Shown piece by piece: positions 4,704-50,766 of a stretch of DNA of 64,000 nt. Origin of the DNA: a virus (Duplodnaviria; Caudoviricetes); the IMG/VR virus record IMGVR_UViG_3300021256_000079, positions 1 to 64,000 of that record, one strand, 5' to 3'. Numbering within the stretch: position 1 is the first letter of the stretch; each line of letters opens with the position of its first letter. The notes under the pieces were generated by a model. It was given only the letters and a program-made list of their open reading frames with translations. It searched no databases and had not been told where the DNA came from. The position numbers were made by a program, and so were the translations under genes.

Positions 4704-5519
4704 ATGGCTAAGAGGGTTGAAGTTTCCGAACTAATAAGTCTCTTCCAAAAGATGTATAAACAGAAATGGAAGTATGAGTGGGGCAAATCCACAGAAGGAT
4801 GCGTTGACTGCTCGGGTGCATTTACCTACGCTTTTAGGACCCTTGGCGGCATAGGCTATCCGAATGGAAGCAACGCCATTGCTAGAAGATATTCTGTTGG
4901 TGGACTTCTTCCCATTTCTGAAGCAAAACCTGGAATGGCAGCATTGAAACTTCATAAACCGGGTGAAAAAGGATATGACCTCCCTTCTAAATACTTGAAG
5001 GGAGGCTCTTCTTATAATGGGGATCTCAACGACTACTATCATATCGGACTCGTTGATGAAGATACGAACTATGTACTTAACGCAAAAGGCACAAGATACG
5101 GTTTCTGTAGAGACAAAATCTCCACTTGGGACTGCGTATTTTATCTGAAAGGTGTGGACTATGGAAGTACTTCAGATGAACCAAAGGAGGATATTCCTAT
5201 GCTGGAAGCAAAAGTGGTTCTGCCAAGCGGAGCCAAGGGAGATACCGTTAGAATGAGAAAACGTGCCTCAACAAGTGCAGATGTTGTTGAAAATGTTCCT
5301 GTTGGAAGCACAATCATGGTTGAATCAGACGAAGGTCAGTGGTGCAAAATCCAGTATGGCTCTAAGTCTGGCTACATGATGAGTAACTACATTGAGTATG
5401 CCGGTCAGCAGGACGAAACAGATAGTCTTACTGCCGAGCAGAAAAAGCAGATTGACGAAGCCCTCAAAGAAATTGAGCGCCTGGTTGATGTGATTGGCGG
5501 AATTGTTGGAAGGGGCTGA
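4704..5519 (+). CDS. Endolysin: NlpC/P60-like cysteine peptidase plus SH3b cell-wall-binding domain
   Basis: YEWG...GCVDCSG catalytic Cys, YYHIGLV His, C-terminal VRMRKRAST...GQWCKIQYGSKSGYMMSNYI SH3b pattern; followed by small membrane ORFs. Confidence 0.85.
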   Translation: MAKRVEVSELISLFQKMYKQKWKYEWGKSTEGCVDCSGAFTYAFRTLGGIGYPNGSNAIARRYSVGGLLPISEAKPGMAALKLHKPGEKGYDLPSKYLKGGSSYNGDLNDYYHIGLVDEDTNYVLNAKGTRYGFCRDKISTWDCVFYLKGVDYGSTSDEPKEDIPMLEAKVVLPSGAKGDTVRMRKRASTSADVVENVPVGSTIMVESDEGQWCKIQYGSKSGYMMSNYIEYAGQQDETDSLTAEQKKQIDEALKEIERLVDVIGGIVGRG

Positions 5520-5524
5520 ATCCT

Positions 5525-5842
5525 ATGGAGAACTTAACGTTTGTTCAGATAAAAGACTTTATTATCGTATTTCTCGCGCTTGCTGGTGCCGTCGTTCTTA
5601 TCGGAAATGTTATAAAGACACTTCATGAATGGAAGAAGCCTGGCGAAGATCTTGACGCTTGGCGACAGGATGTCGACCGTAAACTTTCAATGGACGATGA
5701 GAGGCTTAAGGCTATCGAAGACGGTAATAAAGTGGTAACACGTGGAGTTTTAGCCCTAATTTCGCATGAACTCAATGGAAACAGTACGGATAAATTGCAG
5801 AAAAGCCAAGCGGAAATAACAAACTATTTAATCGACAGATAG
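5525..5842 (+). CDS. Single-TM membrane protein, holin-like lysis accessory
   Basis: N-terminal TM (FIIVFLALAGAVVLIG) then coiled coil; directly after the endolysin. Confidence 0.6.
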   Translation: MENLTFVQIKDFIIVFLALAGAVVLIGNVIKTLHEWKKPGEDLDAWRQDVDRKLSMDDERLKAIEDGNKVVTRGVLALISHELNGNSTDKLQKSQAEITNYLIDR

Positions 5843-27997: not shown

Positions 27998-29002
27998 TCA
28001 CATACAGAGTGCCGCATACATGTCGTCAAAACCGTCTCCATAGAGGTTAATGTAGATATTATAGGTAACTTGTACGCTACTATGCCCCATAAGACGACTC
28101 AGAATCTTAACATCGATACCCTTATAGTAGCAGTTTGTCGCAAAAGTATGCCTAAAAGCATGCTCTCCGTAAAACTTTATTCCGCATTCCTTACAGAGTT
28201 TCTTAGTCTGATAAGAAAGCTTTTGATAAGTATACCTTTCGCCATCCTGCTCAAACACCCATTCTGTCGTTCGACTCTTTAAAAGGATATTTAATATGGC
28301 GATAGCCTTTGGTGTTAGCGGAATAATACGGTTGCTGCTTTTGCTCTTAGGAGAATCCTGATATTCTGCAAAGTTGTACATGGGATTAATAATCGTAGCA
28401 TGTACATGAAGCCGTCTTGTCTGAATTTGGACATCGCTCCATTTAAGAGCCAGAAGCTCTCCTGAACGAATACCAGTTTCGATCATGAAGCCTACAGCAA
28501 GGTAACCGACGCTGTATGGCTGAACGGATATTTTCTTAGTAATCTTCTCTTGCTCTTTATCCGTATATGCTATAATTTCGCGACTCTGCTTTTTAACTCT
28601 GCTTTCGGACGGAAGCTTAACGCCAACAGTCGGATCTGCTTGGATAATTTTCATGGCGGCTGCCTGTTTGAGCGGAGCAGTAACAATTTGAGAAAGTTTC
28701 TTGATGCTACTCATAGCAAATCCATCTTCAAGGAGAGAATTAATGAATCGCTGCACGTCAAAGAAATTAATGTCACCGAGTTTCTTTTCGGAAATCGGAT
28801 ATTTTGACATCGTGTCTCTTGAAGTGCACAGACGTTCATAAGAAGCCTTTTTAACAGAGTTCTTCTTAAATGTCTCAAGCCACATGTTGATAAATTCGAG
28901 TAATGTCATTTGATCGTTCATAAATGACCCTGGTGAACAATCCTCTATCCAGTTTTCAAGGTTCTGCAGTACGTCGTTAGTATAGATATTTGCGTCGTTC
29001 AT
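27998..29002 (-). CDS. int: Tyrosine integrase
   Basis: Core-binding domain, then TGIRSGEL (R), PKSKSS (K), HAFRH, LMGH, YNIY catalytic set; AAAGGAGG RBS on the minus strand. Confidence 0.93.
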   Translation of the reverse strand: MNDANIYTNDVLQNLENWIEDCSPGSFMNDQMTLLEFINMWLETFKKNSVKKASYERLCTSRDTMSKYPISEKKLGDINFFDVQRFINSLLEDGFAMSSIKKLSQIVTAPLKQAAAMKIIQADPTVGVKLPSESRVKKQSREIIAYTDKEQEKITKKISVQPYSVGYLAVGFMIETGIRSGELLALKWSDVQIQTRRLHVHATIINPMYNFAEYQDSPKSKSSNRIIPLTPKAIAILNILLKSRTTEWVFEQDGERYTYQKLSYQTKKLCKECGIKFYGEHAFRHTFATNCYYKGIDVKILSRLMGHSSVQVTYNIYINLYGDGFDDMYAALCM

Positions 29003-36046: not shown

Positions 36047-36128
36047 TACTCGCGTAAGAAACACACGTATAGATGAGAGGACTAAGGAAACTTAGTCCTC
36101 TTTATTTTTATCGAAAGGATGAAAAACT

Positions 36129-36662
36129 ATGAAAAAAGCTATTGTTCGCGGAAACTACGATGAAGCCCCTATGCTCCAGATGGGTTATGTTACTGATTAC
36201 ATGTGGAAATCGGTAGCATACTTTAGAGCGCCAGAAAAAAGTGGAAGATATTTGGTTATTAAAAAAGACGGAACACTCGACGAATATGAGTGCACCGGAA
36301 CAAAATGCGATGACAAATCGCTGTTTGAAATGGCCGCTGAAATGAGTGATGAATATTGCTCAGCCGTTTTTGTCAATGAACACCCCGCAAGCGATACAGA
36401 AATTCTTGACACTTACAGAAGTCCATGGTCTAGATGGTATAAAGTCGAGGAGTGGTACGAATACGAAGACTGCCACACTGATCTGCATATGTTTACAGAA
36501 GAATCTGATCAGTATCCATTATATTTTCTTGACCTTAATCTTGATGAAAAATTCCAAATCGAAGAAAACGGTGAAATTCACACAGGTGAGGATCCCGTTT
36601 ACTTTAGACTTAATACGAATCTTGAATACGAGCAAATCGACGACGAAGATAAAAACGAGTGA
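36129..36662 (+). CDS. Acidic hypothetical protein
   Basis: AAAGGA RBS after motif 36051; directly upstream of the pentamer array. Confidence 0.65.
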   Translation: MKKAIVRGNYDEAPMLQMGYVTDYMWKSVAYFRAPEKSGRYLVIKKDGTLDEYECTGTKCDDKSLFEMAAEMSDEYCSAVFVNEHPASDTEILDTYRSPWSRWYKVEEWYEYEDCHTDLHMFTEESDQYPLYFLDLNLDEKFQIEENGEIHTGEDPVYFRLNTNLEYEQIDDEDKNE

Positions 36663-36665
36663 ATA

Positions 36666-37325
36666 AAATGTTATGGCAAAGTGTAGATCTGAGGGGCGTA
36701 GGAAGAGAAAAGCAACGTGATGGCATGGAACGGCAGGGAAAAGAATTGCAAAGCGAGGGAATAGCGCTGCACTGAATCGCGTGGGAACAGAGTAGTTACG
36801 AGTAGCAAAGGATTAGCGATGCGACGATTACCAAAGAGATGCATTGGCATAGAACGGCACGGAAACGAATGGCAAAGGACTTGCATAGAAGAGCAAAGGA
36901 GAGGCGTGGCGACAAAATGGAGACGAAATGCAACGGAACAGGACCGCTAAGAAATGAGGAGCGTTGGAAATGAACGGTATGGAGCAGAAAAGAACTGCAT
37001 AGGAATAGAACAGCTACGAATTGAGGAGTGTTGGCATAGCTCAGAGATGCAATGGAAATGAACTGCCAAGAAACGGTACGCAGTGGTAGAGCTTAGATAC
37101 GAGAAGCATTGGCAAAGAACGGATGCTCATCGAGATGCAAAGGAAAAGAATGGCCTTGAATTGAACTGCCAAGAACACAAAAGCAATGGAATTGCAATGA
37201 AACGTCCTGAAAGGGAGAAGAAAAGCAAGGATAGCCGCGAACTGTACGCATTGGCAAAGAATGGAGGCTCATCGAGATGCTAAGGAAAAGCCTTGCATTG
37301 AACTGCCAAGAACAGAAAGGCGACG
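36666..37325 (+). repeat. Non-coding NNNNG pentamer-periodic array; candidate guide RNA locus
   Basis: Parses as ~105 pentamers ending in G plus ~22 G-initiated hexamers; purine-rich; no credible ORF. Confidence 0.85.
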
Positions 37326-37352
37326 GCGATTGCTTGAAAGGAGGTGATCAAA

Positions 37353-37628
37353 ATGATAATTGAAAGCTTTCCTGGCGATGCCAAACCGTACAAGTGTAAT
37401 GACTGTGACACAATCTTTTTATGGAGGGAGGATATTGCAGATCATCCAAAAGGAAGATGTAACAGGTTTAGTACTAAGTACGAATGCTATACAAACGACG
37501 AAACATGCTTATTTTACAGCAAATGTAGTGGACCGATATGCCCAGTATGTAAATCCAAATACGTTGTAAACGTAAACTCTTTTTACTACAGAATAACAAG
37601 ATATTTCAGAAATCGAAAGGAGAAATAA
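37353..37628 (+). CDS. Zinc-ribbon protein between array and RAMP gene
   Basis: AAAGGAGG RBS; CNDC, CPVC; C-terminus similar to 41243-41506. Confidence 0.65.
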   Translation: MIIESFPGDAKPYKCNDCDTIFLWREDIADHPKGRCNRFSTKYECYTNDETCLFYSKCSGPICPVCKSKYVVNVNSFYYRITRYFRNRKEK

Positions 37629-37630
37629 TT

Positions 37631-38242
37631 ATGATCACTTTGACTGTTAAGGTTACTTTTACTGAGGAAGTCCTTGGAACTGCTTCTGCTAACAAAGATA
37701 TTCATGCTGAATACATCGCTAGCAAGGCTCCTGATGCTGCTTCCATTAAGGAAGAAGTGGAAGCCGTTGGCGCTGAAGAAGTGTTTGAAAAGTCTATGAC
37801 CGTTTTTCCGCGAGGAAAAGATGGCGGACCGATTGCCTGGGATTACCAGTGGAAGGGTTTTCTTAAGGACGCCTTTAAGTCCCTTAAGAAGATTCCTGGA
37901 TCTGAATGCGGTAAGATTAAGGCCTATAAACAGGAGATTGATGGCCTTATATTCGTGAACCCGCGTCAGATCCCGATCGTTCTCCCTGAAGGCGGAAAGA
38001 TTGGTATCTGCCAGAGACCTCTCAGAGCCAGCACTGCTCAGGGTGAAAGGATTGCTTTGGCCTCTTCTGAAACAGTTCCTGTCGGATCTACTATGACGTT
38101 TGATATTCAGCTGCTTCTTGACACACACGAAAAAGCTGTAATCGAGGCTTTCAATTACGGAAAGCTTCGTGGTTTTGGTCAGTGGCGAAACTCCGGTGCC
38201 GGACGTTTCAACTATGAAATCCTTAACAGAAAGGTGGATTAA
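37631..38242 (+). CDS. Stand-alone Cas7-like RAMP-fold protein
   Basis: LTVKVTFTEEVLG beta1, PIAWDYQWKGFLKDA helix, ETVPVGSTMTFDI strand, C-terminal G-rich loop GKLRGFGQWRNSGAGRF. Confidence 0.75.
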   Translation: MITLTVKVTFTEEVLGTASANKDIHAEYIASKAPDAASIKEEVEAVGAEEVFEKSMTVFPRGKDGGPIAWDYQWKGFLKDAFKSLKKIPGSECGKIKAYKQEIDGLIFVNPRQIPIVLPEGGKIGICQRPLRASTAQGERIALASSETVPVGSTMTFDIQLLLDTHEKAVIEAFNYGKLRGFGQWRNSGAGRFNYEILNRKVD

Positions 38243-38244
38243 TC

Positions 38245-39039
38245 ATGAATACGATGCTTGCTTTTATGATGGGTGATCGTTTTCGTGGTAATGAATTGAT
38301 GGTTTTTGACTGGAATAAGGCTGCAAAACTTATTAAAGAAAACTATCTGGACGAAGTGGTATTTGCCGGTCTTTCTGGAGATATGGAATATACCTCTGGC
38401 TGTATATTCAGAGATGGTCATCCTGTTCTTGACGATTACACATACCTTTCATCAACTTGGGCAACTCCGGTTCTTGCAGTTGGAGACGAAGAAATTCCAT
38501 GCTATATCATGCAACATGAAACCGAGTGGGATGATAGCACTAAATGGCCACAATCCGCTCTTGATATTCTTGGCGTAAAGAAAACCGAACCCGATCCAAG
38601 AATTTACAACGATAATTCACAAGGTCGTGCAATTCTTGAAGACGATGCTTATAATGGGTATCATTATAGAATTGTATCTACTCGCGGCGATCATCCTTGC
38701 TGCTACATCGAAATTACAGAAGGACATCCTTGGTATCGTAAACCTTATCAGCGTCTTGAGTGGGATTGGGAATGGGACGATGAAGGAAAAGAGATAGAGA
38801 AACCTCCAATTGGAGGCAAAACTATCAACGTTCATGGCGGAATTACTTACAGCGATAACATGGACGTTGAAGGAGAATGGTGGATCGGATGGGATTACGC
38901 TCATGGCGGAGATTATTGTCATCATTATATGAAACATTCGCCTGACGATCATGTATGGACAATGGATGAACTTCGAAAAGAAGTGCATGATGCAATTGAC
39001 CAGCTTAATGATATTTTCAAGGAGGACGACGAAAGGTGA
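38245..39039 (+). CDS. Two-domain hypothetical protein
   Basis: VFDWNKAA...AGLSGD...YLSSTWATP domain fused to an HGGITY...WIGWDYAHGGD domain. Confidence 0.7.
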   Translation: MNTMLAFMMGDRFRGNELMVFDWNKAAKLIKENYLDEVVFAGLSGDMEYTSGCIFRDGHPVLDDYTYLSSTWATPVLAVGDEEIPCYIMQHETEWDDSTKWPQSALDILGVKKTEPDPRIYNDNSQGRAILEDDAYNGYHYRIVSTRGDHPCCYIEITEGHPWYRKPYQRLEWDWEWDDEGKEIEKPPIGGKTINVHGGITYSDNMDVEGEWWIGWDYAHGGDYCHHYMKHSPDDHVWTMDELRKEVHDAIDQLNDIFKEDDER

Positions 39040-39305: not shown

Positions 39306-39365
39306 TTCAAAAGAGGCTGTCTCAATCGAGGCAGCCTTTTTATTTTTTCTGGAAGGAGAAATTAA

Positions 39366-40776: not shown

Positions 40777-40940
40777 GAAAGGAGATGATTAAATTGGGAG
40801 TATAAACCCGACGGAGGGCTGTGAGCTTCGGCAAGATCAGTTTTTAAAACTAGCCGTCATAATAGCTCAAAGGTAGAGCGCCTGTAAAGACGAAACAGGA
40901 GACCCGGGTTCGAAGCCCGGAAAATGAAGATCATTCCCTT
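40777..40940 (+). ncRNA. Structured RNA containing a tRNA-like domain (40856-40927)
   Basis: D arm GCTC-AAAGGTA-GAGC, T arm CCGGG-TTCGAAG-CCCGG, 9-nt anticodon loop, broken acceptor, no CCA; closed by AAGGAGATGAT/ATCATTCCCTT. Confidence 0.7.
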
Positions 40941-50371: not shown

Positions 50372-50638
50372 ATGTATGACTCGCCCGTAAACAGTATTGA
50401 AACAATTTATAATGAGATCAAACAGAAGGCTGACAGCGATCTTAAAGACGCCATGTTTACTGTTCTTGGCAAACGAAGCATTGATATTGATGAAGAGAAA
50501 CTCGTCCAGGCAATCACAGCAGATAGAAAAAGGTATGAAGAAGCTTACAGACGTGGCTATGAAGCTGGACGGAGAGATGAATACAACAAATTTGCTACGA
50601 TTTGCTCTAGGGCTATGGATGATATGTGTGGGTTTTAA
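50372..50638 (+). CDS. Hypothetical protein
   Basis: AAAGGA RBS; YEEAYRRGYEAG. Confidence 0.6.
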   Translation: MYDSPVNSIETIYNEIKQKADSDLKDAMFTVLGKRSIDIDEEKLVQAITADRKRYEEAYRRGYEAGRRDEYNKFATICSRAMDDMCGF

Positions 50639-50640
50639 TA

Positions 50641-50723
50641 GAGTTCTGGAAGAGTTCTGGAAGAGTACTTGAATGGTTCTGGAAGAGTTCTGGAAGAGTT
50701 CTGGAAGAGTTCTGGAAGAGTAC
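50641..50723. repeat. 11-bp tandem repeat (GAGTTCTGGAA) x7
   Basis: Five perfect and two variant units plus a partial unit. Confidence 0.9.
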
Positions 50724-50766
50724 GGACGTGGATTTATATTTTTCGAAAATGAAAGGAATAACAATT

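Follow-up and report, generated by a model that had tools for sequence, protein, structure and literature searches.

What is a stretch of some 660 bp, in which a guanine recurs at about every fifth base, doing beside the gene for a small Cas7-like protein in a tailed phage? This question is raised by positions 36,666 to 38,242 of the first 64,000 nucleotides (hereafter the window) of the IMG/VR virus record IMGVR_UViG_3300021256_000079 (Duplodnaviria; Caudoviricetes), for which a preliminary description, made from the letters of the DNA, had proposed a non-CRISPR RNA-guided system. We consider it very likely that the array and the adjacent 203-aa gene together constitute a VIPR (Viral Interference Programmable Repeat) system of the relaxed 'NNNNG' repeat class, having a tail-less, punctuated ('staggered'-like) array. 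The pairing of gene and array is not new, as it matches the VIPR systems presented in preprints in 2026.

VIPR is a CRISPR-related, RNA-guided DNA silencer (bioRxiv 10.64898/2026.04.26.720920, 10.64898/2026.04.26.720927). According to the text of the first of these preprints, a VIPR locus of a phage consists of a lone ancestral RAMP (Vipr) and of vrRNAs built from YNNGG pentamers; the protein holds GGY, while NN pairs with double-stranded DNA, each third target base being skipped, and phages use the system to silence rival elements (10.64898/2026.04.26.720920). The methods of the same preprint list alternative vrRNAs with NNNGG, YNNNG and NNNNG repeats, and its supplementary legends mention both ribozyme-interspersed arrays and 'staggered' arrays, in which each vrRNA begins where the preceding one ends, with a 1-nt overlap. 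In the VIPR of Escherichia phage SUSP1, cryo-electron microscopy revealed one protomer per repeat, with G1 contacted by H17 and D177, G2 held between R138 and W178, the latter stacking on it, and Y3 placed in a pocket that includes R179 (10.64898/2026.04.26.720927). Further non-canonical fixed triplets (GAC/NN, CAC/NN, WGT/NN and TGH/NN) have been found by entropy periodicity (10.64898/2026.10.21.760802). The preliminary description had mentioned a report of phage RAMPs accompanied by pentamer repeats, which corresponds to the 2026 VIPR preprints; its suggestion that an N4G unit would be a different code, foreign to that report, does not hold, as the methods of 10.64898/2026.04.26.720920 already include NNNNG.

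The pentamer array and the adjacent RAMP gene

When the whole window was scanned in 200-nt windows, spectral power above 15 at a period of 5.0–5.4 was confined to 21 windows covering 36651–37350, and the periodic signal was carried by G on the + strand alone, never by C. Between 36666 and 37330, the autocorrelation of G at lag 5 was 2.0x the chance rate and peaked again at lags 10/11, 15/16, 21 and 31, from which it follows that the true period is about 5.15–5.2 nt and not exactly 5. A dynamic-programming parse of these positions yielded 129 units (107 pentamers, 21 hexamers and 1 tetramer), of which 122 end in G. The pentamer-periodic array described previously is therefore real. The hand count given for it (~105 pentamers, ~5 lacking the G) came close, but under-read the hexamers, which are systematic: they take the form C-A-N-N-G-G and occur once per 4–9 units. 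Likewise, the irregular patch that had been noticed near 37225–37250 is present (37226–37250) but is not the only one, irregular units being found also at 36827, 36910, 37123, 37174 and 37265.

On the basis of periodicity, unit parse and module list, we annotated 36666–37330 (+ strand) as a putative vrRNA-type guide array with 129 units of (A/C)(A>G)NNG. In its pentamers, position 1 is A or C in 92%, position 2 is A in 62%, and positions 3 and 4 are near maximal entropy; overall, the base composition is purine-rich (A 38%, G 31%). The hexamers split the array into approximately 21 modules of 4–9 units (plus one irregular stretch of 14), each ending in C-A-N-N-G-G.

As had been stated at the outset, this array is neither a simple satellite nor a CRISPR layout: Tandem Repeats Finder detected no satellite, and a repeat search, which gave just a degenerate 31-nt relation, no repeat/spacer arrangement. 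Nor is it coding, since all reading frames in 36666–37330 are closed and no open reading frame (ORF) of any length respects the repeat. No Rfam family, hammerheads included, was found in the array at the gathering threshold or at E<=5, the predicted RNA is no more structured than its shuffles (fold z = +0.26), and a blastn search with the array against 50,697 phage records returned no match. A 58-nt stretch is duplicated within the array with 86% identity (37106–37163 and 37248–37305). The modules derived from this duplication, at 37144–37189 and 37286–37326, have a common 17-base decoded core and differing ends, as might be expected if each guide addressed a different allele of the same target.

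The vipr ORF (37631–38242, + strand) lies 300 bp downstream of the array, on the same strand, and encodes a 203-aa protein that we annotated as a minimal Cas7-like RAMP, in which an RRM core, a two-helix insert, a thumb hairpin and a G-rich loop, GFGQWRNSGAGRF, can be distinguished. An AlphaFold model built on 22 homologues reached a predicted local distance difference test score of 81.3. Foldseek matched this model best to type VII Cas7 and type III-A Csm3 (E 1e-7), and in an exhaustive structural comparison (VIA-align) it scored Z 12.7 to Csm3 over 158 residues, with RAMPs occupying all of the top 27 rows. Furthermore, the family profile matches the glycine-rich loops of Cas7 (E 0.003) and Csm4, to which the loop GFGQWRNSGAGRF aligns. 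Pfam, PHROGs and NCBIfam contained nothing for the protein, and no curated Cas7 hidden Markov model (HMM) matched it. The earlier assignment to the RAMPs is thus confirmed by a predicted RAMP/Cas7 fold. The gene is present as a single copy in the complete phage genome, in which it is the sole RAMP gene. The family to which it belongs is very common in gut metagenomes, where 5,728 homologues were found at E<=0.001, many of them on contigs of ~90–106 kb.

An hhalign comparison of the family profile with SUSP1 Vipr aligned the two end to end over 167 colinear columns (E 7e-4, probability 26%), including a common C-terminal motif, ...G.G.WR...GRF..EI. In this alignment, W178 and R179 of SUSP1 correspond to W185 and R186, which are invariant in the family, and the G1-contact residues H17 and D177 correspond to T17 and Q184. 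The contacts to G2 would accordingly be retained and those to G1 lost, which fits a repeat that keeps a single G.

Linkage, modules and variation across the family

To a first set of 26 loci with a homologue (40–86% identity; from GenBank phages and IMG/VR), a later set of six metagenome loci (89–99% identity) was added. All 26 loci of the first set contain a G-periodic tract (~5.1–5.2 nt) on the same strand as vipr, mostly directly upstream or downstream of the gene and otherwise within ~2.8 kb; in L024, the most divergent locus, the array signal is short and weak. Five of the six later loci have a tract as well, directly upstream in three of them and 1.8 kb upstream in L032, while the sixth, L034, lacks one in a sequence that has just 224 nt before the gene. 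The linkage between gene and array is thereby shown across the family, and the expectation that homologues would sit beside periodic arrays was borne out. In contrast, no accessory (vap) gene is conserved beside vipr: besides Vipr itself, no protein cluster is common to more than 7 of 24 loci, and none occupies a fixed position.

We parsed 28 arrays, from the fetched loci and the window, into 2,912 units. Pentamers account for 82% of these and hexamers of the form C(80%)-A-N-N-G-G for 16.5%. The unit consensus is (A/C/T)(A>G)NNG, with one G fixed, so that the canonical GGY/NN unit is not seen here; because the preprint admits NNNNG variants, this does not bar membership in VIPR. Hexamer spacing, taken across 25 arrays, is 4–7 units (21, 26, 31 or 36 nt), and hexamers only 1–3 units apart were observed 4 times, compared to ~164 expected under random placement. 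From this non-random spacing we conclude that the arrays consist of short modules in series, with an extra G, about once in six units, marking the end of each.

The extent of the arrays ranges from 0.16 kb to ~4.5 kb per genome. The upper end is represented by a 73-kb relative, G009 (locus L016; IMGVR_UViG_3300035130_000336), with ~4.5 kb of punctuated pentamer arrays in five blocks (roughly 800 units), which lie at ~56.3–62.2 kb and 71.2–72.5 kb, around and away from vipr. Units in this genome have T or C at position 1, instead of A or C.

The array of the window was aligned to those of three loci whose Vipr is 99% identical (L030, L033 and L035). In well-aligned parts, the fixed G showed no substitution in 267 positions and the extra G none in 48, whereas position 4 was substituted in 32 of 265 cases and each of positions 1–3 in 8–16. 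Elsewhere in the alignments, whole blocks have been replaced or inserted, several of the inserts being multiples of 5 nt; in the replaced blocks, the fixed G differs in 11% and the other positions in 34–57%. Constraint on the fixed G, with variation at the remaining positions, had been part of the original proposal and is shown by these counts. Judged from these alignments, the pattern is that which would result if guides were exchangeable while the frame that binds the protein stayed fixed.

Targets, proposed mechanism and competing explanations

Targets were sought in 0.33–0.78 Mb (single-strand length) of related vipr-bearing phages, always with shuffled controls. Neither the rules in which NN is taken from positions 1–2, 2–3, 3–4 or 4–5 (skipping 0–3 bases) nor triplet and quadruplet rules produced a clear enrichment over the shuffled controls; the largest excesses were ~2–3-fold at a threshold of 15/16, and were gone with 12-unit windows. 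Allowing 1–3 extra target bases per hexamer gave nothing in related phages. A match between an L016 guide and L013 (22/24 under the skip rule) was at chance level (~0.6 expected) and was rejected. Triplets at positions 2–4 contain fewer stop codons than expected (94 observed vs 135), but the depletion is modest and extends to other registers, and we do not take it to indicate coding targets read in frame. Against the phage's own genome, none of the modules outperformed the shuffled controls.

Larger collections were covered by eight IMG/VR scans, seven of which used patterns of the window's guides, and by one scan each of JGI metagenomes and of GTDB genomes. In IMG/VR, two 20-base gapped seeds and two window 21-mers read as triplets had 0 matches; a 16-base seed had 5, none of which extended; and the 17-mer shared by modules 95 and 123 had 19, none with fitting flanks. 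One window 21-mer had 0 matches in JGI metagenomes. The same 21-mer scanned against GTDB genomes had 2 matches, both in-frame, in orthologous HtrA-like protease genes of Bacteroidales metagenome-assembled genomes; since ~0.3 matches are expected by chance and the Shine-Dalgarno sites of the phage are untypical of Bacteroidales, these were treated as chance. The gapped-pattern search that had been recommended thus returned chance-level matches only for the guides of the window.

A single guide-target pair was identified within the family. In G001 (locus L007), a seven-unit module at ~5148–5185, with hexamers on both sides, matches positions 5598–5618 of G002 (locus L008) in 21 of 21 bases when unit positions 2–4 are read as contiguous triplets. 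At the matched site, a 72-aa ORF has its ribosome-binding site and its start codon. This 21-mer occurs exactly only once in IMG/VR, in the G002 contig, while the best matches of the other 21-nt modules of that phage group have 3–6 mismatches, mostly 5–6. G005 carries a homologue of the 72-aa-ORF gene with 2 mismatches at the site; in G001 itself, a provirus record that is 75% complete, neither a site within 3 mismatches nor a homologue of this gene was found. Taken as a predicted guide and its target, the pair, in which a module of G001 would address a gene of G002 and G005 that G001 lacks, was counted in favor of VIPR. It is, however, a single case from outside the phage of the window, found after many rules had been tried.

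The 21/21 match is compatible with both the skip rule and a contiguous rule. Should the pair be genuine, the target is followed at all three variable positions; as the probability that, under a two-base rule, the third base matches by chance in all seven units is ~1e-4, a contiguous reading is suggested. We therefore raise, as a tentative and rather doubtful possibility, that the guides are read by a code differing from the published GGY/NN skip-one-base rule, each module of 4–7 units delimited by GG hexamers being a separate guide whose positions 2–4 pair with a contiguous target of 12–21 bp. Under such a code, two of the five RNA bases would be sequestered, and the former G1 pocket, having lost its His and Asp contacts, would free its base for pairing.

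Whichever code is used, homology to the SUSP1 VIPR suggests how the system might act. The array would be transcribed together with its flanking genes as a purine-rich, unstructured RNA, to which Vipr protomers would bind, one per five-base unit. Protein pockets would hold the invariant G, and probably also the non-G base that follows it, so as to present the variable bases, and the resulting filament would base-pair with the double-stranded DNA of a competitor, be it a phage or some other mobile element, and block its transcription. The essentials of this mechanism, namely that each pentamer takes up one RAMP, that the fixed base is bound by the protein and that the code targeting rival phages is gapped, had been anticipated in the preliminary description; they have been demonstrated experimentally for VIPR in the 2026 preprints and may, by analogy, apply to the present locus.

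Several results weigh against the assignment to VIPR. Neither the published rule nor any of the variants tried gave a target for the window's own modules. Unlike the characterized VIPR types, the array has no conserved 3' tail, pseudoknot or ribozyme that would delimit guides, as judged by Rfam and folding; its sole delimiters are the GG hexamers, which is compatible with the 'staggered' sub-form. The modules, with 4–7 units, are much shorter than the SUSP1 vrRNAs with their 9–16 repeats. Sequence similarity to SUSP1 Vipr is weak, as the hhalign probability given above indicates, and an HMM search of the SUSP1 genome with the family profile gave no match. Finally, the comparison to the seven VIPR types of 10.64898/2026.04.26.720920 draws on the text and legends of that preprint.

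Three other explanations have been weighed. That the array is a single RNA scaffold of ~660 nt, on which ~129 protomers would assemble end to end and act as one unit (e.g., as a decoy or condensate) rather than as short programmable guides, is improbable in our view. Such a continuous scaffold, which the preliminary description had envisaged, would suit an array that is uninterrupted by tails, ribozymes or terminators, and in which the periodicity continues over the whole stretch. However, every hexamer introduces a phase slip of +1 that breaks the strict 5-nt register, and these slips are non-randomly placed in the 25 arrays analyzed; the extra-G punctuation argues instead for about 21 short guide modules. 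Moreover, whole blocks have been swapped among relatives, as they would be if the units were independent, and the one matched target coincides exactly with one module.

Control of the phage's own genes (temporal control or lysogeny), instead of attack on rivals, we judge highly unlikely, although the phage is temperate, the locus lies among small early or accessory genes, and the search for external targets came up empty. Here, the lack of matches to the phage's own genome noted above counts against it, the text of 10.64898/2026.04.26.720920 reports that no self-targets were found for VIPR, and the gene to which the one matched guide of the family points is missing from the genome that encodes this guide. 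We consider it extremely unlikely that the tract acts as DNA, be it as a protein-binding or bent element with a G at each half helical turn (an origin, partition or packaging site), next to which a RAMP-like gene stands by coincidence. It is true that the period of 5.2 nt is half of 10.4 bp, and that the phage does use DNA repeats, as a different, 11-nt tandem repeat at another place in its genome demonstrates. Yet in every locus examined the signal is strictly confined to one strand, the coding strand of vipr, the tract travels with vipr wherever the gene sits, and the neighbor has an RNA-binding fold, relatives of which bind exactly such repeats. We retain a VIPR system directed at rival elements as the explanation to be preferred.

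Genome context and comparison with known systems

The genome is that of a tailed gut phage, complete at 94,754 bp and including tail-fibre and helicase genes; a tyrosine integrase gene (27998–29002, − strand) marks the phage as temperate, and the VIPR locus lies downstream of it among small accessory genes. Immediately in front of the array, a 177-aa ORF without a family match (36129–36662, + strand) has its stop codon 4 nt before the first unit; as judged from the sequence, it is probably the first gene on the array-bearing transcript. Consensus scans revealed terminator-like hairpins at 36075–36102, upstream of this ORF, and at 39310–39341, and no promoter-like site on the + strand between the ORF and the array. 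With hairpins outside and no promoter-like site before it, the array is probably co-transcribed with its neighbors.

Between array and vipr lies a CxxC...CxxC ORF of 91–94 aa (37353–37628, + strand). The preliminary description had called it a Zn-ribbon ORF; the motif and the position are as described, but its zinc-ribbon matches in Pfam and NCBIfam are all below cut-off. This ORF is restricted to the nearest relatives: L030 has it, L033 has a 135-aa ORF in its place, and L031 and L032 lack it. Although it may serve as a local accessory gene, it is no conserved part of the system. A 264-aa ORF (38245–39039, + strand), which begins 3 nt after vipr and belongs to phrog_2164, of unknown function (PHROG E 1.8e-20), is likewise limited to the closest relatives (4 loci).

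Elsewhere in the window, a 932-aa protein encoded at 58763–61561 matches phrog_4291 ('RNA-dependent RNA polymerase') with 1135 bits. This protein is probably a single-subunit two-barrel RNA polymerase of the YonO type, and its presence suggests that some of the phage genome is transcribed by the phage's own enzyme. In the accessory-gene region, at 40857–40928, Rfam gave a weak match to tRNA (RF00005, 32.2 bits vs a 29-bit cut-off). Intergenic positions 50640–50722 contain the 11-mer AGAGTTCTGGA in tandem, in about seven copies, with one block interrupted; the repeat has an iteron- or operator-like look. The second 'array' that a periodicity scan had flagged at 50591–50760 was rejected, as it is a plain 11-nt tandem repeat and not a guide array.

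VIPR is only months old, and bench tests have so far been limited to GGY/NN types. The family described here makes do with a reduced repeat in which one base is fixed, has very short guide modules and shows no accessory gene. The one 21/21 match hints that it might be read by a different rule; were this so, the known design space of RNA-guided DNA recognition would be wider, and target prediction for such arrays would have to change. For annotation, these ORF-free, purine-rich stretches in gut phages can be labeled as guide arrays, rather than being left as unexplained gaps.

With the Cas7 backbone of class 1 CRISPR systems (Csm3, Cmr4, type VII Cas7 and Csf2), the 203-aa protein shares the fold of RRM, thumb and G-rich loop (Z 10–12.7). 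These proteins also polymerize on RNA with a fixed step, but this step is 6 nt, with one flipped base, and the RNA consists of a spacer between repeat handles; in addition, they require Cas5, Cas6, large subunits and a CRISPR array, none of which was seen at this phage. The preliminary description had seen none of cas1/2/5/6/8/10 in the window; for Cas1 this agrees with our search, which found none in the complete 94,754-bp genome (the control was positive in 7 of 14 control genomes), the other cas genes not having been searched singly.

The non-canonical VIPR arrays of 10.64898/2026.10.21.760802 likewise repeat with a period of 5 nt, lie near a Vipr-like fold and have a fixed part other than GGY. 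However, they comprise ~10 repeats per array, while the array studied here has 129 units with regular +1 slips, and its fixed part is a G and a non-G base. The Type II VIPR of SUSP1 (Vipr ALH47069.1; KT454805 28474–29061) is similar in its size of ~200 aa and domain order, in the Trp-Arg of the G-loop, which is kept, in being phage-borne, and, as we infer for the present system, in having one protomer per 5-nt repeat. In the SUSP1 sequence (KT454805, 27.5–29.5 kb), we saw strict GGT-NN repeats with hairpins and tails; its units are strictly YNNGG, with 9–16 of them in an RNA, every such RNA has a hairpin upstream and ends in a 3' pseudoknot tail of its own, and a vap1 gene is present. In contrast, the present system has one fixed G, no tails and shorter modules, and replaces H17 by T and D177 by Q.

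A close counterpart is found in the 'staggered' VIPR with NNNNG or YNNNG repeats, as far as it is described in the methods and the legends to figures S17–S18 of 10.64898/2026.04.26.720920. Common to both are a lone minimal phage RAMP, an adjoining array on the same strand with 5-nt units and one fixed G, and guides that abut with a 1-nt offset, with neither CRISPR repeats nor cas1/cas2. Beyond what the text of that preprint provides, our measurements add the punctuation by C-A-N-N-G-G hexamers, modules of 4–7 units, a locus organization that includes no conserved vap, and arrays that range from 0.16 to 4.5 kb.

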